A stretch of DNA of 64,000 bases from Alphaproteobacteria bacterium (lineage in GTDB: Bacteria; Pseudomonadota; Alphaproteobacteria; Bin95). The stretch lies in assembly GCA_965205265.1 (NCBI GenBank), contig CBDBGH010000003.1:5024001-5088000 (forward strand), in the 5' to 3' direction. This document shows, piece after piece, positions 4,053 to 43,161 of this stretch (position 1 is the stretch's first letter; each line of letters opens with the position of its first letter). A model generated the notes under the pieces. It ran no database searches and was not told the DNA's origin. It was given only the letters and a program-made list of their open reading frames with translations. Position numbers and translations under genes: made by a program.

Positions 4053-6400
<2,348 letters not shown>

Positions 6401-19215: not shown

Positions 19216-20286
19216 ATGGACAGCTACATCGAGAATGGCGAGCGGTGGTCGGTCCTGCGTTTCGACGCCGACGGGGTCGAGGAACTGATGGCCCATGCAC
19301 GGTCGTGCGACCGCCACAGCATGGGTTTCAGCGAACGCGAGCGCGTCTATGGCAAGGGGGTCTGGGACCCCCAGCCCGACGAGGAGGAGAGGGCGCCGAC
19401 GACACTGGTTCTGGTCAAGAACGAAGGCATCTACCTGGTGTCGAGCGGGGTGCCGTATATGCCTGATCCGGACGATCCGAAATGTGCGAAGGTCGTCTAT
19501 GCCCAGGGATACGACCCGACCAAGGCGGACCGGATGCAGGTCTGGGATGCCGCCCGGGCGGCGGTGGGCGGTGCCGACTTCTCGGAGTATTTCGATCTGG
19601 ACACCTTCGAGGCGCCGCTGGCCGCCGCCCGGACGAAGGCGGGCCGCGGCATGGTCGAGATGCATGTCTCGGAAACCGGCATCAAGATGATGACGCTTGC
19701 GCCGGCCGGCGCGGCCCCGCCCCGGCCGGCCGCAGCCGAAAGCGCTCCGGTTCAGGCGCAGGCGAAACCGGAGGAAACGGTCGCGGAGCTGTATCGGACC
19801 TCCCGCGAGAAGTTTGCGGCCTGGGCCGCCTGGCTCCTGTTGGCTTCGCCGAGCCCGCTGGTGCAGTGGCAGGGTGACGATTTCGTCCGGGACGCCGGGG
19901 TGCTGGCCCTGAAGGCTTCACAGGGAGAGCGGGTCACGCAGAAGGCGGTGACGGATCTGCTCCGCACATACCGGCGGCTCGGGAAAGAGCAGGACAGCGC
20001 CATGGACCCGCTCTCCAGCGCGCGGCGGGCCGCAATGTGGTTCCTGAGGACACTGGACCCCAAGAAGGACGACATGGAGTGCCCACACAACATGGTTGCC
20101 GCGACGTCGCGGGCCGCATTGATCGGCAACGCGAACGCTGCCGCGATGCCATCGGTGGACCAGCGCCGCGAATATCATGACTGGCTGTACAAGACCATGA
20201 ACGATGCGGCGAACTCGATCAGGGAGACAGCAGGCAAGCGGGCGCGGCAGGACGATGCCCCGTCTCCCGACGGGCCGGGCCTCTGA
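19216..20286 (+). CDS. DUF3085 domain protein (plasmid/ICE type) with C-terminal extension
   Basis: LVLVKNEGIYLVS...VYAQGYDP...GGADFSEY. Confidence 0.75.
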   Translation: MDSYIENGERWSVLRFDADGVEELMAHARSCDRHSMGFSERERVYGKGVWDPQPDEEERAPTTLVLVKNEGIYLVSSGVPYMPDPDDPKCAKVVYAQGYDPTKADRMQVWDAARAAVGGADFSEYFDLDTFEAPLAAARTKAGRGMVEMHVSETGIKMMTLAPAGAAPPRPAAAESAPVQAQAKPEETVAELYRTSREKFAAWAAWLLLASPSPLVQWQGDDFVRDAGVLALKASQGERVTQKAVTDLLRTYRRLGKEQDSAMDPLSSARRAAMWFLRTLDPKKDDMECPHNMVAATSRAALIGNANAAAMPSVDQRREYHDWLYKTMNDAANSIRETAGKRARQDDAPSPDGPGL

Positions 20287-20838: not shown

Positions 20839-21777
20839 TCAGACCCCGGGGCCGGGCTCGTCCCCTGCGTCGTCGAGCGTGAGGTCCCTGTGGGAGGCAA
20901 GCGCGACCGGAACCGGGCCGGCATCGGTGTCGATCCGGAACTCGGCGGCCAGCTCCCAGGCCCGGGGATCTTCGGGAAAACAGCAGGGATCGGCGCCGGC
21001 GCCGAAGGGCGGGCCGCCCTCGAGAAAGAGCAGGCGTCCGTCGGCCAGACGCATGAAATCCGCCGTAAAGCTCCTGCTGTCGCGGGGCCAGTGCCGATCC
21101 GCCCCGGGCGGATAGACGATGTCCCCTTCCGGCAACTGTTCGGAAAGCCGGCAGGAAAGGTTCACGGCCTCCGTGAGGTCCGTGCGGACCCGGGCCCCGT
21201 CGGGCAGGTCGCGCTGCGGATAGTAGCTGGAGACCCCGCGAGGCCGCCCGTCGAGCATGAAGACGCGATACTCGACCGGATAGCCGTCGACGAGGTCGGC
21301 CTGGACCCAGGGGCGGCGCCAGACGGTCACGCCTTCTCCCGGATATTCGAACAGCAGCTCGAAGGCCCGCGGGTCGTCGACCGTGAACCCGTCGAGAAAG
21401 CGCTCGGACCATTCCGGACGTCCCCGCGAAAGGTGGAGCTTCACGTCCATCGGGGCGCACATGTCCCAGCGCAGCATGGTTCGGGGCTGCTTGGCATTCT
21501 CGATGGCGGAGAAAAAGCGCCTGATCTCCTCGACCTGCCCGTCGTCCGGTTCCTCCCAGTTCAGGAGGGATTCGATGTCTCCCGTGACCACAGGCTCCGC
21601 GGGAACATGGTCGATGCCGGCACGCTCGCAGGCCTCGATCCAGGCGCCGAGCGACACGAGCCGGAAGCCGTGGGCGTCCTTCCAGGCGTTGCGCGGCGGA
21701 TTGCGCCGCGCCTCCTCAAGCCGGGCCTCTATGGCCTCCATCGGAAGGCGCTTCGGCTTTCGCTCACTGTCGCTCAT
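20839..21777 (-). CDS. Hypothetical protein, possible R2K/Cdc123-like ATP-grasp
   Basis: RPW...EYRVF...GVSSYY...FTADF...LFLEGGP pattern. Confidence 0.55.
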   Translation of the reverse strand: MSDSERKPKRLPMEAIEARLEEARRNPPRNAWKDAHGFRLVSLGAWIEACERAGIDHVPAEPVVTGDIESLLNWEEPDDGQVEEIRRFFSAIENAKQPRTMLRWDMCAPMDVKLHLSRGRPEWSERFLDGFTVDDPRAFELLFEYPGEGVTVWRRPWVQADLVDGYPVEYRVFMLDGRPRGVSSYYPQRDLPDGARVRTDLTEAVNLSCRLSEQLPEGDIVYPPGADRHWPRDSRSFTADFMRLADGRLLFLEGGPPFGAGADPCCFPEDPRAWELAAEFRIDTDAGPVPVALASHRDLTLDDAGDEPGPGV

Positions 21778-21980: not shown

Positions 21981-24173
21981 TCAGCCGTTGCCCCGCGCCT
22001 CGAAGAGTCCGCCTCCGTGGTGGGACGTGCGGCCGAGCATGACAGGCCCGGCCTGGGCGGCCCGGAAGGTGAGCCGGACCCACGCGTCGATGCCGCCCCG
22101 CTCTCCCGTGACGATGGAGGTTCCGAGAATGTCGATCTTCTCGGCCGCGGGCAGCCGGGCCCGATGCATCTCGGTCCTGATGTCCTTCTCGACAAGGGCC
22201 GGAACCGGCCGGTTCCTTTCGATGAACCGGGTGACCCGATAGGGGGTAATCGTCTCCCATACGCGGCTCGGGACAAACAGCGGGTCGCTGTCGGCCCGGA
22301 CGGGGACCGGCTCGGTGCCCAGGACCCCTTCGGCGCCGGCGACGATCTCCCTCATGCCGGACACGGCCTGTTCCACGAGCCTGTGGCCCTCACCGATCTC
22401 GTCGGGGAAGTTGCCATCGGCATTGCGGTGACCGGGCGCCAGCCACAGGATGCGGCGGCGCGCGAGATCCGTGCAGATGAACACATGCCGGTGCCTGCCG
22501 TCGCGCGAGCGGATCGGGCCGCTCGAGTTGACCGGATGACCCGACACATAGGGTGGAAGCCGACGCCGGCGGCCGATCAGGTCCTGCGCGCGGGCCATCA
22601 TGGCCCGCCGCGCGGCCTGCGTGACGGCCATCGGGTCCGCATCCCGCCCGATATCGGAAACGATCTGCAGTGCCGTGATGCCGGAGGTCTGCTCCTCGGG
22701 GCGCATCAGCCCCAGCCCGAGAAACCGGCCGTCGCCGACAAGGACGGGACCGGAAACGGGTTTCGAGAACTCGATTTCGGCATGCCAGAGCCGGGACTGC
22801 GAGAACCGGGTTCCCGGTGAGAAGGAGCGCGAATGAAGCCCCTCGTTGTCGGGGGAGGTGCGCCGCACGGCAACGGACAGGGCCGGGATGGTGATGCCGG
22901 CATAGCGGAGCGCCTTCCGCACGGCCTGCACCGCATGCTGTTCGCCGCGCCTCACATCGGTGCCCGAGACGGCGCCGCGCTTCTCGCGCGGCCGCTCCGG
23001 CACCGCGATCGGGGTGACGGTGCGCCAATAGCGCGACCTGCCCTCGTACCGCTCGACCATGCGGCGGCTGCCGCCCGGGTGGAGTTCCGCCCGGACCGAG
23101 CCGTCTTCACGGGTCCACGCAATCTGGGAGAAAGCCCAGGAGACCTCGTCGCCGGGAATCGGGCAGGAGCGCGGCACATAGACGGCCACACGCCGGATCA
23201 TCATGTCGGAGTCCAGGTGGCCTATCGAGGGGAGGGGAACGATGCGCACCCTGGACAGGGCGTCGTCGCGCTGGACGCCGCGGCCGATCAGGAAACGCTC
23301 GACCGTGTCGGCGAGGTCGGGAGAGTTCTCCCGGATCAGCCCGGCGGCCCGGTCGCGGATATCCTCGACGAATGCCACCGCACGGTCGAGCGTGGTTGCC
23401 GAGTAACCGCGTCCCTCGCCGTCCAGGACGTCGAACAACAGGCGCTCGTCGGGCGTATTGTAGCGCACGGGTGCAAGCGCGGGCTTGGCGGGCTGCTCGA
23501 AGACAGCGACGTCGTTCCGGCCCAGGCGCTCGCGCGAAAAACGCGACAGGTTCTGCCTGTGACGCCTGCGCAGACTTTCGAGGGAGCCGGGTTTGGGGCA
23601 CAGCAGCGATGGCCCGGCGCGGCCCCGGTCGGAAGGGGTATAGACGACGATCCCGGGCTGCTGGAACAGGAGGTCGCGTTCCTCGGTGTCAATGATCTTC
23701 CCGGAACCCCAGGCCTGATCGAAACCCCGTCCGAGCTGGTAGATCGCCCTGGCCGCGTCGCAGACCTCCCGGGCGTAGCCGGTCCGGTCCCCGTTATTCC
23801 CGATATCCCAGCAATAGTGGATGGGGATGGCCTCATCGAAGATCCGGTATTGCTGCGGTTTCGGCACCTTGATCGAGGCAAGCGCCTCGTTGAGGTCCAC
23901 CGACGGCCCTCCCGGGATGGCGGAGTCCATGTCGTTGTTCGGGACATAGGGCGTGACGCCTTCATGCCGGGTCGCCGGCGGGGCGCCGATGACAGGCGGT
24001 GCGAGGCCCTCGAGCCAGCCGAGAGCCTCGAGCAGGCCGGGGCGGACGGTGCCGCCCTCGGCCGACCCGGCAATCAGCGCCTGGAACACACGGCCGGGCG
24101 CCGGAGGCCAGTCGCCCGTGCCATGGTAGCGTCCTTCGCCGAACCGGACGCTCAGGAGGAGGGACCGGCTCAT
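21981..24173 (-). CDS. csb2: Type I-G Csb2 (Cas5/Cas6 fusion)
   Basis: GRYHG..DWPPAPGRVFQALIAG; QLGRG; GPVLVGDGRFLGLGL and GPVMLGRTSHHGGGLF glycine-rich loops. Confidence 0.93.
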   Translation of the reverse strand: MSRSLLLSVRFGEGRYHGTGDWPPAPGRVFQALIAGSAEGGTVRPGLLEALGWLEGLAPPVIGAPPATRHEGVTPYVPNNDMDSAIPGGPSVDLNEALASIKVPKPQQYRIFDEAIPIHYCWDIGNNGDRTGYAREVCDAARAIYQLGRGFDQAWGSGKIIDTEERDLLFQQPGIVVYTPSDRGRAGPSLLCPKPGSLESLRRRHRQNLSRFSRERLGRNDVAVFEQPAKPALAPVRYNTPDERLLFDVLDGEGRGYSATTLDRAVAFVEDIRDRAAGLIRENSPDLADTVERFLIGRGVQRDDALSRVRIVPLPSIGHLDSDMMIRRVAVYVPRSCPIPGDEVSWAFSQIAWTREDGSVRAELHPGGSRRMVERYEGRSRYWRTVTPIAVPERPREKRGAVSGTDVRRGEQHAVQAVRKALRYAGITIPALSVAVRRTSPDNEGLHSRSFSPGTRFSQSRLWHAEIEFSKPVSGPVLVGDGRFLGLGLMRPEEQTSGITALQIVSDIGRDADPMAVTQAARRAMMARAQDLIGRRRRLPPYVSGHPVNSSGPIRSRDGRHRHVFICTDLARRRILWLAPGHRNADGNFPDEIGEGHRLVEQAVSGMREIVAGAEGVLGTEPVPVRADSDPLFVPSRVWETITPYRVTRFIERNRPVPALVEKDIRTEMHRARLPAAEKIDILGTSIVTGERGGIDAWVRLTFRAAQAGPVMLGRTSHHGGGLFEARGNG

Positions 24174-24177
24174 CGGG

Positions 24178-25257
24178 TCAGGCCGCCTCGTCGGCGGGGA
24201 GGCCGATATCGCGGCGGGCCCTCGCGCGCTCGTAGGCAACCGACCGGCTCGGCCCGACGCCCCATTCGGCCGCCGCGGCGCGGGCGACTTCGACCGCATT
24301 CCCGGCATTGAGGTCGAGCGCCTCGCGCTGGCCGTTATGCATCACGACTTCCCATGACGCCGTCCTGTCCGGATCCAGCGTCAGCAGGCAGCCCTGCCGG
24401 AGGAACAGGTTCGATGGCGTGGTGGCCGCGACAACAGCGAGGCCGAGCAGGTAGCGGCGCATGGCTTCGCCCTTCTCGCCGCGCAGGCGGCGAAGGGCCA
24501 CCAGGTTGATCGTGGTGGAGCGGATGATCTCGCCATGCACGATGACGCCGCCAAGCTCCTCGCCGACGCTCGGCACCGTGGAATAGCCGCGCCCGGAGAG
24601 GTCGTTCTTGTGCCTGACGGCCTCCTCGTCCGTCACGATGCCTTCCTCGCGAGCGGAGATGGTCGGATTGTACACGGAGCTGCGCTCGATTTCGTGGGCA
24701 TCGGTTGCCCGGATCACCGACTGGATGATCCGCGGAATCTTGACGCCGCTCGCGCGGGAATCCCAGCAACCGAACAGGGCCGATGTCGGGGCCATCTTGA
24801 CGAGTGCCGTATAGTCGTCGGCATCCTTGATCGTCAGGAAGATGGTCTGGATTTCCCGGTCGAGTTCCGTGCCGCGAAGGGTGGCGTCGGCGAGCCGGTG
24901 CGCGAAGGTCAGGATCGAGGCCACGCGGTCATTGCCATGCGTGACATCGATCTGCGGCACGAGATCCGCCAGAGGGTTCTCCTCGCCGTGCCGGCGCATG
25001 AAGACGGGTTCCATCTGGTTGGCCTGGCTCGCCACGCTGTCGATCGTCACGATCGTGCTGCCGTCGCCGAGCGTGTCGATGTTGTACCTCGACCTTTTCC
25101 CCGTCGGGTCCTTTTCGGACCGTGGATAGGACGGGGGGAAAATCACGGAGTGGTGGCCTTCGACCGGCATCAGCGCCTGCTGCAGCGTCAGCGCAACCGG
25201 GCCGTCGCGGTCGTTCGCGCAGAGCGTCGCGAACGCGGTATCGAATTCCGTTGTCAT
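24178..25257 (-). CDS. csb1: Type I-G Csb1/Cas7u backbone
   Basis: VIFPPSY, IDSVASQANQME, HRLADA, PTSALFGCWDSR, LRQGCLL. Confidence 0.93.
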   Translation of the reverse strand: MTTEFDTAFATLCANDRDGPVALTLQQALMPVEGHHSVIFPPSYPRSEKDPTGKRSRYNIDTLGDGSTIVTIDSVASQANQMEPVFMRRHGEENPLADLVPQIDVTHGNDRVASILTFAHRLADATLRGTELDREIQTIFLTIKDADDYTALVKMAPTSALFGCWDSRASGVKIPRIIQSVIRATDAHEIERSSVYNPTISAREEGIVTDEEAVRHKNDLSGRGYSTVPSVGEELGGVIVHGEIIRSTTINLVALRRLRGEKGEAMRRYLLGLAVVAATTPSNLFLRQGCLLTLDPDRTASWEVVMHNGQREALDLNAGNAVEVARAAAAEWGVGPSRSVAYERARARRDIGLPADEAA

Positions 25258-26141
25258 TGAGTCCTCTCTTCGGTTACCTGGTTGATGGACCTCGCCCGGT
25301 TCGGGCCCTGAGGTTCGCCGCATACGACGCGGAACAGGCGGAATGCCTGTCCCGGGACGACCGGTTTGCGCATGCCCAGGGCGGCGCGCAGGAATATCGG
25401 GTCGTGCAGCTGCCCGTTCTCGATTCCAGCGACGCCGTAACTGAACAGCAGCCGCGTGATATGGGCGGGCCGGGCATGCGTCAGGCCGATGGCTGCCAGC
25501 ACCTCCACGAGGGGGTAGCCTCGCGTGGTCATGGCCTTGCCATGGGCATTCAACGAGAAACCGATCTCGACCGGGATATAGTCCGACCGCCAGTCGAAAC
25601 GCATCCGGCGGCCGCCCACCCGAATGGACGACATCGAGAAAGGGTCTTCCGCATGGTCGAGAATGCCCTCGTCCCGGGCCGCCTCGAGACAGTGCTGGAC
25701 GATGAGGGCGCCGGGCGCCCCGCCCATCCCCGTCCAGAACTTCGCTGTCTCGCGTCGGGCCTCGTCGCCCCAATGGTCGATGACGATCCGCTGGGCGCCG
25801 TCGTCGAGCAGCGCAGGCAGCTTTGCCGGCGTATCGAGATGGGGCATCGGGAAGGCAATGCCCGGCGTAACCGAGGTCTCGACCTTCTCCGCCCAGCTGC
25901 CCAGCACGCAGGGAGAGCCGGGCGGCAGGAGCATCGAGACCCTTGCGTTGTCGAGAAACTCCAGCACCCTGCGGACCGGGTCCACCTCTCCGGGCGTCTC
26001 GATTTCGAACCGGCCTTCGGCTTCGCACCAGGAGAAGCCGCCCATGGCTTCGCCCGCAAGACTGTTGGCGGCCTCGAGAAATCCCAGGCAGGCAAAGACC
26101 TGGCCGGGATTCAGCAGGTCGACCGGAATCGACTGTCTCAT
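25254..26141 (-). CDS. cas8u2: Type I-G large subunit Cas8u2/Csb3
   Basis: IPVDLLNPGQVFACLGFLE...KFWTG...FDWR...GFS...VEVLAAIGL; ATGA-coupled on both sides. Confidence 0.88.
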   Translation of the reverse strand: MRQSIPVDLLNPGQVFACLGFLEAANSLAGEAMGGFSWCEAEGRFEIETPGEVDPVRRVLEFLDNARVSMLLPPGSPCVLGSWAEKVETSVTPGIAFPMPHLDTPAKLPALLDDGAQRIVIDHWGDEARRETAKFWTGMGGAPGALIVQHCLEAARDEGILDHAEDPFSMSSIRVGGRRMRFDWRSDYIPVEIGFSLNAHGKAMTTRGYPLVEVLAAIGLTHARPAHITRLLFSYGVAGIENGQLHDPIFLRAALGMRKPVVPGQAFRLFRVVCGEPQGPNRARSINQVTEERTQ

Positions 26142-28894
26142 CGGTAGGCCTCCTCGATGGCCGCCTGGAACTGCGCGCGCGAGGCGCGGTAGTTCGCCGA
26201 GCGCAACAGGGATTCCCACCACGCCAGTCCCCATGGTCCCCAGATGCGTTGTTGCCGCGCATAACGCTGTGCGATCGCCAGGCCTTCGGTGGCGGCGTGC
26301 CGGGGCGGGAGGTCATCGGCGCCCTTGATGCCTATGACCGGACGGGCCTGGCCGTGATGCGACGCGATCAGGTGCAGCGCCAGCTCGAAGCGCGGGTCGT
26401 CCCGGGCAAGATCGAGGCCGTTCCTCGCCGCCAGAACTGTCGAGACGAACTCGTGGCGGTAGCGCGACAGCATGCTTCGTTTCAGGCGTTTGGCGGACTT
26501 GGCGTAGGGGTTTGCCGCCCAGTCCGAAGGCACGCCATAGGCGCGCTGCCACCGCCGCACGGCCTTGCCGTCGTCGTGGTGACGCGCCGCGGTGACCAGC
26601 ATGGCCCTGTCGGCCGCCTGTAAATCCAGGGCATCGGCGATATGGGCGGCTTGACCGCATACCTCGCGCACATGATCCTGGAGCGTTTCCGCCTTCAGCG
26701 AGGTGGCCCGGTGCCGTTCGCCGGACTCCGCTCCGTCGCGCGCCTGCACGGACAACCAGCGCAGGGGCATCTCGTCTTCGTCCAGACGCCACACGAACGC
26801 ATCGATTTCCTGCCATACGACGCCGTCCTCGACGATGGCGCCGCGGTCGGCTCCTGTGGAGACGCGGATCCGGTAGGGCGAGGCCGGAAGGTCTCCGGAG
26901 GCCTCGTTCCCTAGGCCCCAATTGTCTTCGGGGGTCGAAACGGCGGTGTCCGCCTTGATATCCAGGTGGCCGGCGGCGAGCCCGCCAAGACGGGCATCGA
27001 CGACGAGACGCCGTCCCCATAGCCGCCGGCTGAAATTGTCCTGCGCGGCCCGTGAGGCCCGCGACAGGTTAATCAGGTCCCGGTGGACGAGCATTTCCCG
27101 AAAGCTGCCGCTCTGGCTGAGCACCACGGCGACCGGTGCGTCGGGGCGCTTGAGCGGATAAAGGTCGTCATGGACCGGTTCGGGTTCGGCGGTTGCGCCC
27201 GCGACTGCCGCCACCCTGGACAGCAGCCAGGCCAGCACGTCGGCGCTGTCGGCCCAAAGGGTTTCGGCCTGCAGTGATCGGGCGGCCTCGAAAAAGGTCT
27301 CGACATGGTAGCCGTAGGGTGGGGAAAAACGCCGTCCGCGGTCCGTGTCCTGCATGATGACCGGCAGATAGTGGCGCCAGAGCACGGATGTGCGCGGCGC
27401 GCGTTCCTGCCAGCCATGCAGCCAGGGCCCTATGCGAGGCCGGCCGGTATGGGAGAAAAGGGATGTCATGGACCAGGAATCGACTGTCGCCCGTTCCAGG
27501 TCCGGGTAGAGCGGCACGGACGGGGCGGCGGCCCGGACGGACCGGCGAAGGTCCTGACACCGGTAGATGGCCGACAGGGCTTCGGGTCCGGCCTTCACCA
27601 TATCCGCTCCGGCCGGCGGGAGGCCGGAGAGCAGGGAGCGCACGGCGGTGATCGCGGGGTCCACCCGTTTTTCGTCCGCGGTCCTGTCGATGACGGCAAT
27701 GCGCGCCGTGCGGTCGCCGCTGCGCCCGACCCGGCCGAACCGGCGCACCATGCGCGGCCAGTCGCCCACAAGGTCGCAGACCATGGCGTCGGCGTCGAGA
27801 TCGCTGGCGATTTCCCCGGCCAGGGTGGAAATCAGGAAGCGCGGAGCGTCCATGTCGCGGGGGCGGCCATCGCCTGTAAAGCCGCTCTCTGCAAGCCACT
27901 CCGAAAGTTCGCGGCGCTCGCGGGTGCGCTGGCCCTCGAGCAGGAGGGCGGAATGTCGGCCCGCCGGCTTTTTCCCGAGATACCGGTTGATGCCGGCCAG
28001 GATGCGCAGGGCATCCTCACGCGCATCGACGAAGATCAGGATGCGCCGTTCCCCGTCCTCCGCATACGCCCGCGCCCGGTCCACGACTTCGGAAGCGAAG
28101 GCGGCGCCCCGCGCCGGACAGCCATGGACCGACAACTCCTTGTCGGCTGCCAGGCGCTTGGCGATAACCGGATGGGACAGGTCCTCGGCTTCCAGGGTGA
28201 AGAGGCCGGTAGTGGCGCGGTTCACCTGGCCCGAGCTCGCCATGGCCATGACGCGCAGCCCCGGCAGGAGATGCCTGTTGGCCGAATCCGGGGCGCCGAA
28301 CTCATGGGCGCCACGCTCGATTCGGCGCAGCAGGCTCTCGAAAGACGGCATGAGGTCGCGGTCATCGAGCACGATCAGACAGTCACAGGCGAGATTGGCG
28401 GCGGCCAGGGACCGCACGGAGCGATGAAGCCCGTATCCGCTGAAGAGCAGGGCCGAGCCGATCATGTCGACGGAACCGACTATGACCGACGGCAGGTGGG
28501 GATGATAGAGCCAGTCCGAGGAATCGACCCAGGCGCCGCGGAGCGTCGCGATGGGCAGATGTCCGTCCTCGTCCAGACCGAGGCCCTTCCGCAGGGCTTC
28601 CGAGCCCTGGACGGCGGCATGGGCCGCCTCTGCAAGTGCTGTCGCCCGGTCGATGACCGCGGCGCTGTGCACGACATAGGCAAGGCGGCGCGGCACGGGA
28701 GCCCCGGCGGCTCGCGCGGCGAGCCAGACGGCCATCACGGAAGCGCGTCCGCTTCCCGCCGGAATATCCACGACGGGCGGAACGGCACCGCCCATGAAAC
28801 CGTCATGAAGACGTTCGTGCCAGGGAAGGGGCGGGTGCCCGGTTACAGCCTCGAACAGTGCGCTCAATGATGGATTTCCGGCTTTCTGCTGCAC
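26138..28894 (-). CDS. cas3: Type I-G Cas3 (helicase + C-terminal HD) with degenerate catalytic motifs
   Basis: I-G architecture with C-terminal HD (LQDH, HHDDGK, RHE, HHG, GPWGLAWWESLLR); Walker A GSGRA, motif II LDDRD; GTG start at 28894 after a GAGGA RBS. Confidence 0.92.
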   Translation of the reverse strand: MQQKAGNPSLSALFEAVTGHPPLPWHERLHDGFMGGAVPPVVDIPAGSGRASVMAVWLAARAAGAPVPRRLAYVVHSAAVIDRATALAEAAHAAVQGSEALRKGLGLDEDGHLPIATLRGAWVDSSDWLYHPHLPSVIVGSVDMIGSALLFSGYGLHRSVRSLAAANLACDCLIVLDDRDLMPSFESLLRRIERGAHEFGAPDSANRHLLPGLRVMAMASSGQVNRATTGLFTLEAEDLSHPVIAKRLAADKELSVHGCPARGAAFASEVVDRARAYAEDGERRILIFVDAREDALRILAGINRYLGKKPAGRHSALLLEGQRTRERRELSEWLAESGFTGDGRPRDMDAPRFLISTLAGEIASDLDADAMVCDLVGDWPRMVRRFGRVGRSGDRTARIAVIDRTADEKRVDPAITAVRSLLSGLPPAGADMVKAGPEALSAIYRCQDLRRSVRAAAPSVPLYPDLERATVDSWSMTSLFSHTGRPRIGPWLHGWQERAPRTSVLWRHYLPVIMQDTDRGRRFSPPYGYHVETFFEAARSLQAETLWADSADVLAWLLSRVAAVAGATAEPEPVHDDLYPLKRPDAPVAVVLSQSGSFREMLVHRDLINLSRASRAAQDNFSRRLWGRRLVVDARLGGLAAGHLDIKADTAVSTPEDNWGLGNEASGDLPASPYRIRVSTGADRGAIVEDGVVWQEIDAFVWRLDEDEMPLRWLSVQARDGAESGERHRATSLKAETLQDHVREVCGQAAHIADALDLQAADRAMLVTAARHHDDGKAVRRWQRAYGVPSDWAANPYAKSAKRLKRSMLSRYRHEFVSTVLAARNGLDLARDDPRFELALHLIASHHGQARPVIGIKGADDLPPRHAATEGLAIAQRYARQQRIWGPWGLAWWESLLRSANYRASRAQFQAAIEEAYR

Positions 28895-28967: not shown

Positions 28968-28996
28968 ATAATACGAATATAATTCGTCCCTGTCAA
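28968..28996 (-). promoter_or_regulatory. Sigma70 promoter of the cas operon
   Basis: TTGACA (28996-28991), 17-bp spacer, TATTAT (28973-28968) in an AT-rich patch. Confidence 0.85.
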
Positions 28997-31898: not shown

Positions 31899-32930
31899 CT
31901 ATCCGGGCCCGGGCGCATCGTCGAGGGCGGGCCCGGAGCCATTGTCCGGAAGGCGGACCGGACGGTCGGCCGCCCGGAATTGCACCGTCTGCCGGACGTC
32001 TTCGTTGACTTCGAGCAAGGCCCCTTCGCCTGCCGAAAAGACAATGCGGGCTTCGGCGTCGATGTCCTGGCTCCAGCGGGGGAAATGACAATCGACAACG
32101 CGCCGCGCGATTTGCTGGAGAGCGCGCCTGAATGTCATGTCATCCAGATCGCGCCGTTCCCCGAGAACCACGTCGAACATGCCCCGGACGGTTATGGCGT
32201 CAAGGTTGACCTCCGGGTCGGGGCCATCGGCGGCCGCAACCATTGCCATATTCCCGAGGTGGACCCTCTCACCCGGGTCGCGGCTTTCCAGGAAAACGGA
32301 GATGGTATGGATGCCGGCGTCCTGCATCGCCTCGGTAAGGCAGGCGAGATTGTGACGATGGCCCTCCTGCGCCAGACGCCGGTGAGCGGCCTCGCGGGGT
32401 TCGTTGCGAATTTCCTCGTCCGAAAGCGGGGCAAGCAGCGGGGTCTGTTTCCAGGCCTCGGACGTCCACTGGAGGTCGGCCCGTTGGAGCCGGATGTCCG
32501 CTTCGTTCGTGCGGACGGTGATTTCGGCCTCGCCGCCGAAGTCCTCGGACCAGCCGGAATACGATGCGTCGAGCACCTCGTCCAGAGTGTGTTGCAGCGC
32601 CTCCACGAAGCTGAGCGAGGACATGGGTAGCCGGGCCCACCGGCCCGACTGCCCGTGAACCAGTTGCTGGAGGCCCGACACGGTGATCTGTGGCGGCCGG
32701 TCCGTCAAAGGCTGGCCCGAGGCCGGAACATAACGGACCGGGCCGACGGTCACGTTGCCTTCGTGGCCGGAAATGCAGGCCTCGATCTCGGCTATGCCCG
32801 CAATCTGCATGAAGCTCGTCAGCACCGCGAGATTATGGCGGGCGATGACGGCGGGGAGATCGTCGTCGGTCGCGGGGCCCGGTGGAGTCCTGAAATAGTG
32901 GGCTTCGGAGATGCTGCGTTCGCTGGGCAT
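31899..32930 (-). CDS. Tandem-domain DUF6878-like paralog
   Basis: Two copies of HNLA.L...M..AGI..I...(Y/F)..WS(E/Q)D..(G/A)EA.I. Confidence 0.7.
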   Translation of the reverse strand: MPSERSISEAHYFRTPPGPATDDDLPAVIARHNLAVLTSFMQIAGIAEIEACISGHEGNVTVGPVRYVPASGQPLTDRPPQITVSGLQQLVHGQSGRWARLPMSSLSFVEALQHTLDEVLDASYSGWSEDFGGEAEITVRTNEADIRLQRADLQWTSEAWKQTPLLAPLSDEEIRNEPREAAHRRLAQEGHRHNLACLTEAMQDAGIHTISVFLESRDPGERVHLGNMAMVAAADGPDPEVNLDAITVRGMFDVVLGERRDLDDMTFRRALQQIARRVVDCHFPRWSQDIDAEARIVFSAGEGALLEVNEDVRQTVQFRAADRPVRLPDNGSGPALDDAPGPG

Positions 32931-34114: not shown

Positions 34115-35107
34115 CTAGAAGAACGGCGGTTCGTATTCTTCCTCGGGCAGCGGTTCGCCGGCGTCCAGGGAGCGCCAGATGTCTTCAGAGAACCGGCTGC
34201 GCGACGGGATGGAAAGGATAGCGGGCCGACGGTCGGCATCCTTTCCTACATAGACGCTGGTCGCGAGCCAGTCGCTTTCGGCTTCCGGGTCGTCGGTCTC
34301 TATCCACCACACCTTGCCGGCCGGCAGATGGTCCGGGCGCCAGTGATAGCCGCGGTCCTTCATGACCTCGCGCGCCTGGAACGGGGCGCCTTCCGCGCAG
34401 ACCAGCCAGCGCGGCGTCTTGGCGGCGGTGTACATCTCCGCGAACAGGGGATGGCCGTCCGGCGACCGCCGTGTCAGGAGTCCGAGGACCGCCCGGCAAT
34501 CCTCGAGGGCATCGTGCGGGTTGTAGAAGAACCCGAATTCGGTGGCCAGACTCTCGAGGCTGCGGGAATTGAAGCCGTGGTCCTGCCACGCGATATCCTC
34601 CAGCGAGCAGGCCCAGGAACGATTCCTGAAGACGGGCCAGTGTTTTTCGACCATGGGCCGGTCAAAGGAGGCGTGATGGGCGACAATGATGTCCGCCTGT
34701 TCGACCAGGGTCTGGACCTTGCGGGTGTTGACGCTCTTTCCCTGAAGCATTTCGGGGGTGATGCCATGAACCGCCTGGGCTGCCGGGTTCATTTCCACCT
34801 TGGGCTCGCGCAGGCCGACATAGGTCGATTTCTCGCCGGCCACGCAGAGGCGGCCGGTCGACGGCTCAAAGGAGAACGGCAGGAGCGCAAGCTGGATCAC
34901 CTCGTCATAGGACAGGTCGGTACCCGTGGTTTCGGTATCCACCACCAGGCCGATCGCCCGGGGGGCTCCGGTAGGCTCGTCGAGCTGCCTGGGAAGTTTC
35001 AGCCTGCGAAGCAATTTCCAGTCTTCGGGACCGGCTTCGGGGTCGGGGCGGATAACGGCGGTGTTCGGGATGGAAAAGATATTGTCGGGTTGCAGCTGTG
35101 CGCCCAT
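34115..35107 (-). CDS. DEDDh 3'-5' exonuclease (DnaQ/epsilon-like)
   Basis: VVDTETTG, VAHHASFDRP, HDALEDC. Confidence 0.9.
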   Translation of the reverse strand: MGAQLQPDNIFSIPNTAVIRPDPEAGPEDWKLLRRLKLPRQLDEPTGAPRAIGLVVDTETTGTDLSYDEVIQLALLPFSFEPSTGRLCVAGEKSTYVGLREPKVEMNPAAQAVHGITPEMLQGKSVNTRKVQTLVEQADIIVAHHASFDRPMVEKHWPVFRNRSWACSLEDIAWQDHGFNSRSLESLATEFGFFYNPHDALEDCRAVLGLLTRRSPDGHPLFAEMYTAAKTPRWLVCAEGAPFQAREVMKDRGYHWRPDHLPAGKVWWIETDDPEAESDWLATSVYVGKDADRRPAILSIPSRSRFSEDIWRSLDAGEPLPEEEYEPPFF

Positions 35108-35491
35108 TCGGTCCTCCGGATTCGGCGGGTCTTGGAGCGAAGCTAGGTCCGGGCGGTGAAAATTCAAAAAGCGAAGGGACGGTGCCGTCGGGCGGAGCTT
35201 GCACCGGAAAGTTTCGGGCTGCACATTATGCGCCCCTCGCTCGCGCCCCTGGGTGCGGGGCGGGGCCGTTGTTTGTCAGCGTCGATCAATCGCCCGAAGC
35301 TGCGGCCGCGAAGCGAGCGGTCTGGCGGCGCCGGAACCCCCGGGGCCGCTCGAAAGTGTTACGGGACAAGGCTTCCAGGTCCGAATTCCGTGTTTGCGCG
35401 CGTCCAGGAAATGCCAGGACGGGTCATATCCGGAGGACCGCTCGAAAACTGGCCGCCCGAGCCTTGTCAGGCAAGGCTTTTCGAGGCGGCT

Positions 35492-36261
35492 CTCTCCCCG
35501 GCGTGATCGCCGGGTTCCCATTGAAGTCGCGCGAATCGAGCCGGCAGACCCAGGCATTCGTGAAACTCTCCCCGGCGTGATCGCCGGGTTCCCATTGAAG
35601 TGAGACGAGATGAACAAGGCAGCCTGGGATCGTTACGCACTCTCCCCGGCGTGATCGCCGGGTTCCCCATTGAAGTGCATCCGATTGCGCCAAAGCTCCA
35701 GCGCTTCGGCTCCTCTCCCCGGCGTGCTCGCCGGGGCCCCACATTGAAGTTCGTAGTAACAGACGTTTTTCGGCGGGCCCTTGGTGACCTCTCCCCGGCG
35801 TGCTCGCCGGGGTCCCCATCATTGAAGAAGCCGTCAACAGGATGCCGACGATGACGAGCAGCGCCGTGCTCGCCCCGGCATGATCGCCGGGGCTACCATT
35901 GAAGCGGTCAAATATGCCACCGCATAGCGAGCCCAAGCAGCCCCCACGCCGGCCTGCGGGCCGGATGCATACATTGAAGCCTCGGCAAACGCGTTTCGGA
36001 GCCACCGAATGTTCGGAAGTTTGCCCGGCCTCCGGGCCGGACACATTGAAGCCCTCATATTTCCGCCGCGGCAAGGCCCTCCGGGCAGGGCACTCGCACA
36101 TTGAAGCCGCCCCGAATCCCGGCAAGCTATGGTTCAATCGAAGAGATCTCCCCGGCCTCTGGCCGGGCACACCACACCACACATTGAAGGTAGGCAACAC
36201 CAGGCTTGATTGCCCCCTGGTTTGCCGGCCCCGGCGAAACTGCCGGGGCTCGAATTGAAGC
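35492..36261 (+). CRISPR. Type I-G CRISPR array, 11 repeats / 10 spacers, progressively divergent repeats
   Basis: 36-bp repeat CTCTCCCCGGCGTGATCGCCGGGTTCCCATTGAAGT at 35492 and 35566; variants at about 35640, 35713, 35789, 35869, 35941, 36020, 36071, 36146 and 36224, all ending ATTGAAG. Confidence 0.95.
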
Positions 36262-36791: not shown

Positions 36792-37532
36792 CTACGGGAT
36801 GACCTCCGCGTCCGCTTCGGGCGGTTCCGGTACCAGGAAGACCGGGAGCTCTCTGGCTATCGACTCAATGCGCCAGCCGAACTCGAATTTGGCAATATCC
36901 GGCGTGACGGTGATCGTGCCGGCGCTGCCCTCGCCGAGCTCCCAGCCTGGATAGTGTTCGTCGGCAACCTCGACGGCGAACGCCTCGCATATGTCGGTGA
37001 GGGTCTCCTTGCCCAGGGAGACCGGGCCCATGTCCGGCGGCGTCGTGGCCAGCAGGTCGCCAAAACCCCGATCTCCGTAACCGCTGACCTGAAGCCGGAT
37101 TTCCATGATGCCGTGCTTCTGCATCGCGTGACGGAGGAGGCCGAGAGGCTCCGCGGTTCCCGTGAGCAGAACGGGAGTCTCGGCGGTGTATTTTTCGTCG
37201 TTCCAGCCGATCTCGAGCCGGGCTTCGTCCGGGGTGACGGTGATCGCGCCGCTGCCGCCATCGCCCAGTTCCCATCCGGGATAGCAGTCGCTCGTTATGT
37301 CCGCCCCGAAATGCTGGCAGAAGTCCTCGAGCGTGCCGCCGTCGATCTCGATGGCCCCGGCCTCCGGGGGATCGATCGCCTCCAGCTCGGCGTGTCCCTG
37401 ATCGTTGTAGCCGTTCACCGCGATACGGACGGTGGCGATTCCATGGGCGCGCATGACGTTCTGGAGGTCGCCGAGGCCGGCCGCCTCGACGGGTTCAGGC
37501 GCTTGCGCCGAAGTGGATTCCTGATGTTCCAT
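36792..37532 (-). CDS. Tandem DUF6878-like protein
   Basis: Two copies of M..HGI..(V/I)...GY(N/G)D.G...YPGWELG.G..G.ITVTP. Confidence 0.8.
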   Translation of the reverse strand: MEHQESTSAQAPEPVEAAGLGDLQNVMRAHGIATVRIAVNGYNDQGHAELEAIDPPEAGAIEIDGGTLEDFCQHFGADITSDCYPGWELGDGGSGAITVTPDEARLEIGWNDEKYTAETPVLLTGTAEPLGLLRHAMQKHGIMEIRLQVSGYGDRGFGDLLATTPPDMGPVSLGKETLTDICEAFAVEVADEHYPGWELGEGSAGTITVTPDIAKFEFGWRIESIARELPVFLVPEPPEADAEVIP

Positions 37533-37541
37533 GATTCCCTC

Positions 37542-38253
37542 CTATGGCCCATGCTCCGCCCGGGGTTCACCCGGGCCGGACAGGAGCGGGATAATCCGGT
37601 AATCGATTTCCGGGCGGCGCCACGCGAACCGGAGCGCCGCCTCGTCCTGCGTGAGCAGGATTGTTCCCGTGCTCCCGGCCCCGTCCTTCCACCGGGGATA
37701 CAGGGTATCCAGGACGTCGGTCGACAGGCGCTCGACAAAGTCCTGGAACCGGGTGCCGGCGATGTCGCTGTCGGGCGGACGCGGCCAGGGTCCGTCCATG
37801 TCGTCGATCTCGGCATAGCCGTCGCCGCGTCGTCCGTGAAACGCCACTTCCATGCCGGAGATCGCGTTGAGCTGCATCCAGGAGTGCAGCCGCCCGAGAG
37901 CGCGGGCCGTACCGGCCGGCATGCGGGGATGGTCCCGAAGGCCGACGGACTCGATTGCCGCCGGCGCCATCCGGCGCTGTCCGAACTCGATAACCGCGCC
38001 GTCGGCAAGGACGGCAATGCGCCCGTGGCTGCCGTCATTGACCTCCCAGCCGGGAAAATCGGCCTCGATGACGTCCCGGATGACATCATCGGCGAAGGCG
38101 AGGGCAATCCGCTCGAGTTGCGGGTCATGGGTCCCGGAACCGGGCGCGGGCCTGACGACGGATACCTCGCCCTCGTCGCCATAGCCGTCGATCTCGATCT
38201 CCACGATTTCATCGCCGGTCTCGTGCATCCGGTCGCGGAGTGCCGCCAGCCGG
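37542..38253 (-). pseudogene. Tandem DUF6878-like gene, 3' part, interrupted by IS21 #2
   Basis: DGYGDEG...FPGWEVNDGSHG; joins in frame to 42340..42382. Confidence 0.82.
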
Positions 38254-38347
38254 TGTTAGCGACGGTTAGGAAGGGCGTTTATTTGCTGGCGCGGAACGGC
38301 CGGTTTGTGCGGCTTGCGAGCAGCGTCGCATGGGTTAGGTGTTGCGT

Positions 38348-39241
38348 TCATCTGATTGGGCGGTCATCGGTTTCGAGCGGCTCGCCGTCGCGGTCACGGA
38401 TGAGCATGTCGTTCCAGTCCTGGTTTTCGAGGGCCGGTCGCATTCGGACGATTCTTGTGTCGTTGTCTTGCATGCGGCGGGCGGCGTGATCGCCGTATCG
38501 TGTAGCGTCCCAGGCACAGAAGATACGGCGCGGGTTCCAGGCCTCGACCCATTTGGGGATTCTGGCCGTGATGGCGCCGGTGGAGACGACGGCGCATTTG
38601 CTGCGTTTTTCCGGGACGAGGTGGAGGGAGAGGATCGACAGGGCGTCGAGGGCGCTGCCGGTGAGGATGACGGTGCCGGGCCAGTCGGGCTCCCATGACA
38701 TCCAGAAGCCGCCGTCTGCGGCCGGCTCCTGCGCTGCGGGGAGGGTCTCTATGCCGACCACCTTGCTGGCGGCGTTTCGGCGGAGGAACACGGGATTGCC
38801 GCGCCGGTCGGCACGGATCAGGCCGAGGCCTCGGCATAGCTCGACGAGCGCGTCGGCGAGGCCGCGCTGCTCGATGAGGTATTGCCGCAGCGCCGGCCAG
38901 CGAGGGTCCTGGCACGAGGGCTCCGCCTCACAGCGACTGTTCGGGAGCCGTGAGTGGCGCGGCAGTTGGGCGAGGAAGTCGAGGGCTTCGGTCGTTGGGC
39001 ATCCGAGCGCATGAACCGCCAGCTGGATGGCCCCGGCGCCTCCCTCTCCGCGCAGATGGTCGTAGAACATGAAGCGGTTGATGGAGAGGACCGAACCGGC
39101 TCGTCTCCAGCGCGCGGCATCGGCGGGATCGCGGCGATAGCCGAGGGCGTGGACCACGTCTTCGAGGGGGCAGCTTCGCAGCCCCTCGGCCCGCAGGCGG
39201 CGATCCCATGGATGCAGATGCTGCACGGCTGGCTCAGGCAT
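38348..39241 (-). CDS. IS passenger: DUF3991/Toprim-like protein
   Basis: [38 protein letters not shown]...GD..A, QDWNDML. Confidence 0.7.
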
Positions 39242-40019
39242 CCCCCGTGTCTTGCGCCGTGCTCTTGCCCGCTCCTTTTGCCGATCGCCGCCGGCGGCGA
39301 TCGGCGCTGCGCTGCTTCTGGCGTTCCTCGGCCTCCTTGCGGCGGTATGAGTCGCCGTCGATGGCGAGGATCTCGGCATTGTGGACGAGCCGGTCGACAA
39401 GGGCCACGAGGCAGGCGGCGTTGGGGAAGGCCTCGCTCCACTCGGCGAAGGGGCGGTTTGTGGTGATGATGGTGGAGCGCTGCTGGCTGCGGCTTGAGAC
39501 GATATTGAACAGCAGGTCGGCATGACGGTTGGAGTAGGAGAGATATCCGACTTCGTCGATGACCAGGAGGTGCTGGCGGGCGTAGAAGCGCAGCCTGCGC
39601 TGGAGCATTGTGTCGGAGTCGATGGCGGCGAGCTCGCCGAGCAGGCTGGCGGCGGTTGCGAAGCGCACGGTGTGGCCTTCGAGGACGGCGCGGTGTGCGA
39701 TATTGGCGGCGATTGTGGACTTGCCGACGCCGTTGGGGCCGATGAGGACGACATTGGCGCCCTCGCGGAGGAAGTTGAGGGTCATGAGGTCCTCGACGGC
39801 CATGCGGTCGCATCGCCTTGGCCAGTCCCAGTCGAAGTCGGCGAGCGGCTTGAACTGTCCGAGGCGGGCGGCGGTGAGGCGTCGCCTGAGGCTTCGGCTT
39901 CGCCTCTCTTCCTCTTCCCATGCGATCAGGGGCGGGAGCCAGTCGCGCTCCGCAACCTCGCTCCAGTGGGCGAGGAGGCCGTGCAGTCCGAGCGCCGTGG
40001 CGCGGTCCTTGAGGGTCAT
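39234..40019 (-). CDS. istB: IS21 helper ATPase IstB
   Basis: [36 protein letters not shown]. Confidence 0.95.
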
Positions 40020-41521
40020 TCTTCGCTGTCCTCCTCGTGGTGGCTTGCGAGCCCGTCGTATCCGCCGAGGTCGTGATCGCGGACCGCGATATCGCGCAGT
40101 CTTGGATCGCCGGGCAGGTCGATGGGGATGGGTGGTGGCTCGTTGCGCTGTTCGCGCCGCCGGTTCAGGCTGAAGCGCACCGCATTGGGATGGGGGACGC
40201 CGCGCTCAAGGGCTTCATCGATGGCGGCTTCGAGTTCGACGGCTCCGTAGTCGTCGAGCAGGCGCAGCAGGGAGGCGACGGTTGTGCCGATATTGCCGCC
40301 GCGCCTGGCGGTCTCGGCAAGCAGGCGCTCGCTGTCGGGGGCGGCCTGGAGAAGGCGGCTCTGCCCGCGCAGGCGGTGGGCGTGACGTTTGAGCCTGACC
40401 AGCTCCTCGATGTGCTCGGGGGTCTCGATGCGGGCCGCCTTGTCGAAGCTGCGCGGATGACGGGCGACGGTGTCGGCGCCGTCGAGGATGCGTACCTCCT
40501 CCAGTGTCGCGACCACGGTGAGGGTGCGCCGCGTATGGGTATGCGGGACGCTATAGTCATTGAGGTCGAACCTGGCGTAGGGGGTCTTGCCGATCCTGAC
40601 CTCGACCCTCTCGTCGACGGGGGGCCGGTCGTCGGGCAGCGCCATCAGGGAGCCGCGCTCGCGCTCGAAGGCCTCGCGCACGGTGAGGGAGCGGTCGTCC
40701 GGCCAGCGACGGTCGGCGGCGACGCCGTCGCACCAGGCGCGGGCCCGGGCGTTCAGGTCGTCGAGGTCGCGCCAGGCGCGGGCGGCGAAGAAGTTGTCGC
40801 GCACATAGCGTATGGCGCGCTCCACGCGCCCCTTCTCGTTGCCGCGCGCGACCGCGACCGGCTTGGGCAGGAAGCGGTAGCGGGCGGCGAAGTCGAGGAG
40901 CCGGGGGTTGAACCGGATGGCGTCGCCCTGGCGCTCCAGCACGACGCTCTTCAGGTTGTCGTACCATAGCTCGCGGGGCACGCCCTGCCAGGCCTCGAAG
41001 GCCTCGACATGGCCGCGCAGGAAGTTGTCCATCGCGGCATTGAGGTAGAAGTGCAGGAAGATGCGGCGCGAGTAGCTCAGCACCATCACGAAGCCCATCA
41101 GCGGGCGCTCCGCGCGCCCGATCCTCACCTTGCCGAAGTGGGCCCAGTCCACCTGGGCCAGCTCGCCGGGCAGGGTCTTGAGGCGCAGATAGGCCTCGGC
41201 CACAGGCCGCGGGCGCTCCGGCGCGATCATGCGCCGGAAGTGGCTCTGGCTGCCCCGGTAGCCGCGCTCGACCGCCATCTGGTAGAGCCGGCTGGCTGGC
41301 AGCCTGGGCCAGACCGCCAGGGTCTGGCGGATGAAGGGCCGGAACGGATCGATCATCGAAGCCCTGCGCCGCCTCTCACGCGCGGGCGCCCCGGCGGCCG
41401 CTACCGCGCGCTCGACCGTGCCGTGGTGGACGCCGAGCTGGCGCGCGATCGTGCCGATCCTCCACTTCTCGGCAAAATACAGCCGCTGGATCTCGGCACG
41501 GGTCTGCTTGTCGATCGCCAT
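40016..41521 (-). CDS. istA: IS21 transposase IstA
   Basis: PGELAQVDW, LWYDNLKS, NEKGRVER; start at MAIDKQ. Confidence 0.95.
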   Translation of the reverse strand: MAIDKQTRAEIQRLYFAEKWRIGTIARQLGVHHGTVERAVAAAGAPARERRRRASMIDPFRPFIRQTLAVWPRLPASRLYQMAVERGYRGSQSHFRRMIAPERPRPVAEAYLRLKTLPGELAQVDWAHFGKVRIGRAERPLMGFVMVLSYSRRIFLHFYLNAAMDNFLRGHVEAFEAWQGVPRELWYDNLKSVVLERQGDAIRFNPRLLDFAARYRFLPKPVAVARGNEKGRVERAIRYVRDNFFAARAWRDLDDLNARARAWCDGVAADRRWPDDRSLTVREAFERERGSLMALPDDRPPVDERVEVRIGKTPYARFDLNDYSVPHTHTRRTLTVVATLEEVRILDGADTVARHPRSFDKAARIETPEHIEELVRLKRHAHRLRGQSRLLQAAPDSERLLAETARRGGNIGTTVASLLRLLDDYGAVELEAAIDEALERGVPHPNAVRFSLNRRREQRNEPPPIPIDLPGDPRLRDIAVRDHDLGGYDGLASHHEEDSEE

Positions 41522-41522
41522 C

Positions 41523-41957: not shown

Positions 41958-42186
41958 CGCGACCGATGAGAACGGGGTGGACCCACGCCCGGACGCGCAC
42001 GATACTGCGCTTCCGGGCCGCGCCTTGCATGGCTCGGGGGGTGCGGCGCCGGTCGTTGCCACCAAGCCAACGGGGCCGGCGCCGCATCGTTCTCAGAAGC
42101 CCCAGTCTACCCCCTGCCGCAGCCCGGGAACGGCCAACCCGGTCGCCAGGACGTCGCCGCCCTCCGGGAGGCGAAAATCTCAACGC

Positions 42187-42243
42187 GACGGGGGCCGAGG
42201 ACTCCGGTCGGGCTACGCCCTCCTTCCGTCCTCGGCCCCCGTC
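42187..42243. repeat. Stem-loop element in the IS21 #2 leader
   Basis: 16-bp stem enclosing TCCGGTCGGGCTACGCCCTCCTTCC. Confidence 0.7.
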
Positions 42244-42339
42244 ATAAACCCGGCCGCGCCTGTCTCACGCTGTTTGTCGTGCGCACCACAAAAGCGCGCT
42301 ACGCCAGCAAATATGCGCCCTTTATGATAATCACCGACA

Positions 42340-43144: not shown

Positions 43145-43161
43145 CGCGATTCCTTCCCGGG

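Follow-up and report, generated by a model that had tools for sequence, protein, structure and literature searches.

The 64,000-nucleotide stretch of alphaproteobacterial DNA analysed here (the window) carries a type I-G CRISPR-Cas operon whose Cas3 protein, Cas3g, is full-length and, judged from its sequence, no longer has the residues for hydrolysing ATP and for coupling that reaction to translocation; elsewhere the protein is conserved, including the surface predicted to dock on Cascade. We lean towards the view that this helicase-dead Cas3g is retained as a Cascade subunit of an effector that binds or nicks DNA. The module as a whole is best explained as a derived type I-G interference module with a static array and without adaptation genes, in which Cas3 would be a pseudo-helicase. 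An earlier note, made from the sequence by eye, had proposed a regulatory Cascade built around an inactivated Cas3; its observation is confirmed and its interpretation partly supported.

Helicase motifs of Cas3g

The cas3g gene lies on the minus strand at 26138..28894 and encodes 918 aa from a GTG start; the plus-strand reading of this interval contains stops. An alternative upstream ATG would extend the protein to 965 aa, reaching 29035; the public record (P0459) is the 918-aa form. The product is a type I-G Cas3 by NCBIfam TIGR02621 (453 bits, cut-off 400, model positions 3-854 of 854). Its sole Pfam match is Cas3-like_C_2, below cut-off; the Pfam helicase families DEAD, ResIII and Helicase_C do not match it. 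An AF2 model from a 46-row alignment is confident throughout (pLDDT 89.7, pTM 0.90), and the closest PDB folds are Cas3 structures. At the sequence level phmmer found 0 matches in the PDB, and a profile search of the PDB reached distant Cas3 proteins and SF2 helicases only, with no I-G Cas3 structure among them.

To place the motifs we used an alignment of 270 rows, the window Cas3g and 269 others. The others came from 120 word-indexed homologs, four genes of the same genus, the second Cas3g of this genome and the top 150 of a phmmer search that was exhaustive over 1.84 billion cluster representatives; the alignment excludes P0121, which is a Cas8g2, and the identical fragment P0122. The family consensus computed from it (PTGLGKT, VDRRAVVDQA, LDEAHL, LSATG, QRLGRVNR and LRAAD) agrees with the expected motifs that the earlier note had given. 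Every motif string it had quoted from the window protein is also present: IPAGSGRAS, V-HSAAVIDRA, VLDDRDLMP, AMASSG, MVRRFGRVGRS and LRSAN.

Of 21 positions that are catalytic or near-invariant, the window Cas3g departs from consensus at 12. The protein closest to it in pattern, P0001 (an intact Cas3g of 913 aa, 49% identical), departs at 8, and the next-worst rows at 4 and 3. The changes are Q>H in motif Q; K>R and T>A in Walker A (motif I); E>D and H>D in motif II; S>A, A>S and T>S in motif III; G>A in motif V; Q>R and N>G in motif VI; and D>N in motif V of the HD domain. The Walker A codons (28742..28762, minus strand, computed from residue numbers; residues 45-51) read PAGSGRA where the family has PTGLGKT. 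Motif II (28352..28369, minus strand; residues 176-181) reads LDDRDL for LDEAHL, with the Asp kept and both Glu and His replaced by Asp. Motif VI (27722..27745, minus strand; residues 384-391) reads RRFGRVGR for QRLGRVNR, with three Arg kept and Q>R and N>G in common with P0001; the HD motif V codon (26192..26194, minus strand; residue 901) specifies Asn in place of Asp.

These positions hardly vary elsewhere. Among the other 269 rows the Walker A Lys column holds 263 K and 6 gaps, the Walker A Thr column 262 T, 1 S and 6 gaps, the motif II Glu column 263 E, 1 S, 1 D and 4 gaps, the motif VI Gln column 267 Q, 1 R and 1 L, and the HD motif V Asp column 265 D, 1 N (P0001), 1 G and 2 gaps. Walker A Lys>Arg and Thr>Ala are thus seen in the window Cas3g alone (263 aligned residues at each position). 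All 11 positions checked are likewise canonical in 83 more Cas3g genes, taken from fetched loci, and the HD motif V Asn occurs in 0 of 72 C-terminal Cas3 fragments, one of which stops short of the motif. The earlier note had named, as something that would undo its reading, that active I-G Cas3 proteins might commonly carry such variants; across the 269 homologs and 83 locus genes they are not common.

Sorted by role, the lost residues comprise the Glu and His of motif II, motif III, the Gln of motif VI, the arginines of motifs Ia and Ib and, in this lineage, the Lys and Thr of Walker A. Still in place are the glycines of Walker A, the Asp of motif II, the Glu of motif V and six of the seven HD ligand residues (H741, H773-D774, H814 and H846-H847).

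Loss is localised to the helicase core

Across the 268 other rows, 136 alignment columns reach a conservation of at least 90%. The window Cas3g keeps 112 of them, against a median of 134 for the 251 other full-length proteins. Its losses are concentrated in residues 1-395, the two RecA-like domains, where 22 of 83 conserved columns are changed, compared with 2 of 53 in residues 396-918 (Fisher p=4.5e-4); in those 523 residues only L881 and D901 are lost, to Q and N. The same split gives 25/83 and 4/53 for P0001. These counts support, at the level of sequence, the claim of the earlier note that catalytic residues were specifically lost, as opposed to a general decay of the gene.

Pairwise identities point the same way. 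The window Cas3g is 45, 44 and 53% identical to P0002 over the helicase core, middle and HD regions, whereas a canonical pair at equal middle and HD distance, P0002 and P0014, gives 62, 46 and 56%; the helicase core therefore lacks its usual extra conservation and the remainder is normal. In partitioned branch lengths the N- and C-terminal parts differed only modestly, a contrast that rate heterogeneity confounds, and we relied on the column counts instead.

A second lineage shares the degenerate state

In a FastTree phylogeny (53 rows, 780 columns, read without support values) the window Cas3g and P0001 form a long-stemmed clade, sister to a clade with motif-intact same-genus Cas3g genes. Both proteins are changed at 16 conserved columns and carry the same new residue at 11 of them (V81I, Q83R, S116A, R148A, A220S, T221S, G363A, Q384R, N390G, L881Q and D901N). 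At the other five they differ (window/P0001): T46 A/G, R77 S/N, R78 A/N, E178 D/S and H180 D/E. The window protein has eight further losses of its own, all in the helicase core (Q26, K50, T51 and five others). P0001 retains the Walker A GKT and has also lost further helicase residues of its own.

Read most simply, this pattern means that the common ancestor had already lost ATP hydrolysis and that motif residues have been drifting since. The two helicase cores are 48% identical, with no frameshift in either; with the shared derived residues, this suggests that the state is old and has been maintained, and it is not what neutral drift would leave across such a divergence. The common HD motif V Asn, set among six other invariant ligand residues, looks like a selected alteration and not drift.

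P0001 and a full-length Csb2, P0268 (51% identical to the window Csb2), each lie on a contig of 302,850 bp. The contig of P0001 was found neither among the genome contigs (3 loci, none closer than 39%) nor among the metagenome contigs (80 loci kept, best 41%). A 74%-identical Csb2, P0267, indicates that a closer relative of the window module exists; the Cas3 of its contig did not turn up when shorter Cas3 fragments were searched. Relative to a same-genus canonical locus, the window proteins have diverged evenly (Cas3 42.7%, Cas8g2 50%, Cas7g 51% and Csb2 44.9% identity), suggesting that the whole module is an old lineage and not a freshly broken copy.

Predicted docking on Cas8g2

A reason for keeping a dead Cas3 is offered by the biochemistry of a type I-G system from Thioalkalivibrio, in which Cas3 is structurally needed for the R-loop. 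The available text of that study (Shangguan et al. 2022, PMC9638904) reports that I-G Cas3 needs Cas8g in order to co-purify with Cascade, that it is a stable Cascade subunit before target binding, and that a near-complete gel shift of the target duplex, with R-loop formation, needs it. When ATP is absent it makes a single nick in the non-target strand of the R-loop, and the Walker A and Walker B mutants K39A and D164A retain binding and nicking while degradation is abolished. The contact reported there runs through Cas8g, which corrects the statement of the earlier note that Cas3 joins Cascade via Csb2.

We predicted the complex of Cas3 residues 219-918 with the window Cas8g2, supplying alignments for each. 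The ipSAE was 0.84, compared with 0.20 for the best of three controls; this mark is reached by 58 of 80 solved complexes and by 2 of 110 mismatched pairs. Contacts agree by at least 94% between runs, with a partner pLDDT of at least 81. The predicted Cas3 interface comprises residues 460-496 and 852-883, in which the conserved columns P461, W474, T477, G484, R485, P486, P490, L492, G494 and R877 are kept; the shared L881Q falls inside it. The prediction supports, without proving, binding of Cas3g to Cas8g2. The scaffold role that the earlier note gave to Cas3 is plausible in this light, given the published part of Cas3 as a Cascade subunit and the conserved interface, with the proviso that for the window protein the interface is a prediction.

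The HD domain may still have a part to play. In Cas3 HD structures the motif V Asp binds the site-1 metal, according to the part of the source available (PMC3727216), so Asn901 should weaken site-1 metal binding and need not abolish it; with six of seven ligand residues kept, the protein may still nick DNA.

The operon and its array

The cas3g gene is the first of four in the order cas3g, cas8g2, cas7g, csb2. On the minus strand, cas8g2 (25254..26141) encodes the small version of the I-G large subunit (295 aa; TIGR04106, 172.7 bits, cut-off 125); cas7g, or csb1 (24178..25257), encodes 359 aa (TIGR02570, 111 bits, cut-off 38); and csb2 (21981..24173) encodes a Cas5-Cas6 fusion of 730 aa (TIGR02165, 279 bits, cut-off 45). 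The type I-G signature set of csb2, cas7g and cas8g is thus complete, each above its profile cut-off, and a cas8g2 homolog follows cas3 in 55 fetched loci. All four open reading frames (ORFs) are intact, and Shine-Dalgarno sequences are present in the operon. We could verify the earlier description of cas3g as intact and translationally coupled: ATGA overlaps join cas3 to cas8g2, whose ATG overlaps the cas3 stop, and cas8g2 to cas7g, and csb2 begins 4 nt past the cas7g stop. Upstream, GAGGA stands 7 nt ahead of the cas3g GTG, also preceded by a putative sigma-70-like promoter (28968..28996, minus strand; TTGACA-17-TATTAT, 11/12 consensus match).

Two candidate oddities were rejected. A tandem duplication of the Csb2 C-terminal half is the norm for this Csb2 variant, whose homologs typically have 716-768 aa; the Csb2 conserved-column count is not comparable with that of Cas3g, its 118 references being one tight clade. 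The ORF at 20839-21777 (minus strand, 312 aa), directly downstream of csb2, was tried as a replacement effector; it has sub-threshold R2K ATP-grasp matches only, no PADLOC match and no counterpart at the canonical locus of genome G015 described below.

A CRISPR array of 11 units lies at 35492..36261 on the plus strand, each unit a hairpin followed by ATTGAAG, at a spacing of 55-83 nt. The earlier note had called the arrays atypical, and the units are indeed heterogeneous: units 1 and 2 are identical, and the distal ones have unrelated stems and irregular spacing (55 and 83 nt). Of 15 ATTGAAG sites in the window 11 fall within the 770 bp of the array; the 32-mers upstream of these fold at -12.4 kcal/mol or below in 11 of 11 cases, as do 11.4% of 4000 random 32-mers. 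The 30 nt before the handle have a mean ungapped identity of 0.37 across units, and the array keeps hairpin and handle through complete stem turnover. As a side observation, one contig of sequencing run X3 skips 74 nt at window 35491/35566, exactly one repeat-spacer unit between the identical first repeats, which is either an assembly collapse or a variant without spacer 1.

Three orphan arrays lie outside the window on contig C3 of the same genome, at 5227505-5227802 (plus strand), 5280013-5280164 (minus) and 5293120-5295646 (minus) (loci L105-L107). They have 3 to ~26 units of variable hairpin plus CATTGAAG and are very heterogeneous, with spacing that is in places irregular (110-202 nt); no cas genes of I-G families were found near them.

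The earlier note had taken the absence of cas1, cas2 and cas4 as fitting its reading. None is present in the window: TIGR00287 and TIGR01573 find no cas1 or cas2, and tblastn with the G015 Cas4/Cas1 finds no remnant better than E=0.19. The absence itself stands, but it is not diagnostic, since Cas4/Cas1 occurs in only 17 of the 32 related loci that have 4 kb or more of upstream sequence, yet all 32 have intact Cas3 motifs.

Proposed mechanism

In the mechanism that we favour, Csb2 would cut crRNAs from the heterogeneous array, and these would guide the complex. Cas3g, probably unable to drive processive 3'-5' degradation, would be kept as a built-in Cascade subunit seated on Cas8g and needed for a stable R-loop. 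The complex would then bind its DNA target stably and make at most one nick in the displaced strand through the altered HD site, so that interference would act by blocking or a single nick, not by shredding. Foreign elements, rival mobile elements or host genes are possible targets.

A more specific version is tentative. It holds that the system is a compact RNA-guided DNA clamp or nickase, its crRNAs hard-wired in heterogeneous arrays spread over ~270 kb (the window array and the three orphan arrays), with Cas3 as the lock of the R-loop. Ancestral loss of the catalytic Glu, with the P-loop and arginine fingers kept as in P0001, might have produced an ATP-bound Cas3 that grips DNA.

A second type I-G system and the genomic neighbourhood

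The genome holds two I-G effector sets only, that of the window and a canonical set near 3.41 Mb. The latter has an active-looking Cas3g (C3:3418923-3421433), ~25-30% identical to the window Cas3g, and a Csb2 open frame of 557 aa, compared with 786 aa in the window; the two repeat families of the genome, window and canonical, both end in CATTGAAG.

The canonical locus of G015, a genome of the same genus, has the same four genes, after which come, in divergent orientation, cas4/cas1 and an array with 27 or more identical repeats. At the corresponding position the window has a Fic gene, a Dam-type methyltransferase gene, unassigned ORFs, a DEDDh exonuclease gene and then the array. The Cas4/Cas1 of the G015 locus (L103, G015:C1:5338000-5357999) are 80% identical to the canonical ones of this genome (C3:3407783-3409516), with nearly the same repeats; the Cas3g proteins beside them belong to different subfamilies, at ~30% identity. 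Like Cas4/Cas1 beside unlike Cas3g suggests that adaptation and effector modules have been shuffled.

The exonuclease gene (34115-35224, minus strand) is divergent from the array leader; its product is a DEDDh 3'-5' exonuclease (PRK09182, 252 bits) and matches the PADLOC model for CAS-associated DEDDh proteins (E=7.7e-27).

The neighbourhood is rich in insertion sequences (IS) and accessory genes, among them multicopy IS21-family elements and genes for DUF6878, HigA, two HipA and ankyrin proteins. A 4.1-kb IS21-family element at 38250-42344, with ~17 near-identical copies in the genome, encodes IstB and an IstA with rve and Mu-transposase C-terminal domains, and sits among the DUF6878 genes. 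The genome likewise has multiple copies of a second IS21-family pair, at 4053-6388, and of a DDE transposase at 6497-7921. DUF6878 is matched in part by six paralogous ORFs, spread over 31899-32930, 36792-38228, 42407-43914 and 47656-48465, and the same island also carries DUF3085 (19216-20286), HigA, and two genes each for Fic and HipA. Further away, an ORF of 814 aa (60427-62871, minus strand) has an HNH_4 domain as in Cas9; it is 34% identical to a copy at C3:5128130-5130457 of the same genome, near cas1/cas2 matches and an array of 36-nt repeats.

Alternative explanations

Several observations weigh against a retained, non-degradative Cas3g. A canonical I-G system, complete and with 34 uniform repeats, lies elsewhere in the genome, so the window copy could be redundant. 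The branch of the window Cas3g is long in all parts (outside the core, ancestor-to-tip 0.99 against a sister mean of 0.64), and the branches of its clade with P0001 exceed those of the sister in every partition; constraint may be generally weaker. Sequencing runs X3, X4 and X5 give identical sequence, with no variants for dN/dS. In another public assembly (a 43-kb contig) cas3g is split into ORFs of 432 aa (P0460) and 487 aa (P0122), explained by a 1-nt deletion in a GGG run at window ~27728, near codon 389; the deletion could reflect either a mistake of assembly or a true knockout, and a contig of run X3 spans the GGG site intact. Lys>Arg and Asp>Asn are conservative enough for residual activity to be conceivable, and the lineages known to have a degenerate Cas3g are two only. 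As for docking, the I-G system of the available PMC9638904 text has the large Cas8g1 and the window the 295-aa Cas8g2, and the complex prediction omitted Cas3 residues 1-218 (size limit) and used author-built alignments. The spacers also point nowhere in particular. In the genome itself they gave self matches and GC-rich matches of up to 23 nt only; against PLSDB plasmids and INPHARED phages all hits had E>=0.04; against 60 related genomes there was noise, along with sister arrays; and an exact scan of IMG/VR viral contigs with spacer 1 returned 0. Seed-anchored partial targets numbered 0 in the window (0.5 per shuffle) and 1 in the genome (0-3 per shuffle). With no target beyond chance (self, plasmid, phage or seed-anchored), the label 'regulatory' in the earlier note is without support, and the evidence bears on 'non-degradative' only.

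A possible objection is that the module is a decaying relic: its adaptation genes were lost, it is drifting towards pseudogenes with Cas3 the first to fail, and nothing depends on Cas3. Decay remains a real rival, although we think it unlikely. The absent cas1, cas2 and cas4, the degenerate array with its irregular distal spacing, the plastic, IS-rich neighbourhood, the longer branch in every partition, the frameshifted copy, the lack of protospacers in our searches and the canonical locus with its 34 repeats would all suit a relic. Less easily reconciled with it are four intact and coupled ORFs, 51 of 53 conserved columns kept beyond the helicase core, a core still 48% identical across two lineages, and array hairpins that persist through stem replacement. 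Above all, 11 identical derived residues are shared with the intact, 49%-identical P0001, which has a full-length Csb2 too; such sharing implies that the state survived a long divergence without frameshifts. An improbable but different account keeps destruction and moves it elsewhere: degradation would be done in trans by the canonical Cas3g or another enzyme, or the module would be a decoy of a mobile island, titrating canonical I-G crRNAs or components in the manner of an anti-CRISPR. The active-looking Cas3g at 3.41 Mb could serve the former, as could the CAS-associated-type exonuclease adjoining the array leader. The common repeat ending CATTGAAG and an island with toxin-antitoxin-like, Fic, methyltransferase and DUF6878 genes and insertion sequences are in keeping with this account, but the two Cas3g proteins are only ~25-30% identical, the canonical locus has different effector proteins (witness the Csb2 open frames), a mere decoy would not need a complete effector set, and the window ORFs that were scanned yielded no conjugation or phage genes. 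It is very improbable, finally, that Cas3g is still a working helicase-nuclease with unorthodox motifs. Eight motifs are affected together; Arg and Ala at the Walker A positions occur in 0 of 263 aligned homologs and 0 of 83 locus genes; and a single Walker A or B substitution ends degradation in the I-G Cas3 studied in the available PMC9638904 text. This despite the conservative nature of Arg for Lys and Asp for Glu, the Walker A glycines, motif II Asp, motif V Glu and all motif VI Arg that are kept, and the nearly complete HD site. Moreover, the two lineages differ at the catalytic Glu (Asp and Ser) and His (Asp and Glu), as relaxed selection predicts and a new catalytic solution does not.

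Comparison with known systems

Cas3 defines type I systems as DNA shredders. If the retained-subunit reading of Cas3g is right, a type I-G system can become a non-destructive effector without discarding Cas3, and could do so because Cas3 is structurally needed for the R-loop. The case would parallel Cas12m and type IV and fit a repeated conversion of CRISPR effectors to binding-only roles; it would also provide a natural four-gene scaffold for CRISPR interference (CRISPRi) or nicking, and I-G engineering would gain a ready-made list of inactivating substitutions that the protein tolerates.

The closest known system is canonical type I-G (formerly I-U) in its Cas8g2 variant, as at the G015 locus, which has the same four effector genes in the same order. 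The window also shares with canonical I-G (G015, and Thioalkalivibrio in the available text of PMC9638904) a Cas3g with an N-terminal helicase and a C-terminal HD domain, the hairpin plus ATTGAAG repeat design, and an array divergent from cas3. It differs in the degenerate motifs and HD motif V Asn of its Cas3, in having no cas4/cas1-cas2, and in its heterogeneous repeats, where the G015 array has at least 27 identical ones.

The engineered K39A and D164A mutants of I-G Cas3, as the available part of PMC9638904 describes them, have the phenotype expected here: they bind and nick without ATP-dependent degradation. They are laboratory point mutants, whereas the window state is natural, affects many motifs, occurs in two lineages and alters the HD domain too. 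A full-text literature search for naturally inactive Cas3 turned up engineered mutants only and no natural case.

The regulatory mini-arrays or cr-like RNAs of type I systems resemble the window in having degenerate repeats near cas loci, and in these systems Cascade alone represses and Cas3 is dispensable; they act beside an active Cas3 through partial complementarity to nearby promoters (available text of PMC10120712). For the window array, seed-anchored targets were no more frequent than with shuffled spacers. For the function proposed, the nearest analogues are Cas12m (available parts of PMC10442227 and PMC11013384), in which RNA-guided binding or silencing replaces target destruction, and type IV-A with DinG (available parts of bioRxiv 10.1101/2023.06.23.546257 and PMC11551745), which likewise binds or silences, lacks an acquisition module and has ties to mobile elements, but keeps an active helicase and has no Cas3. 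Both belong to other protein families and all four window proteins are of type I-G families; the resemblance is functional only.

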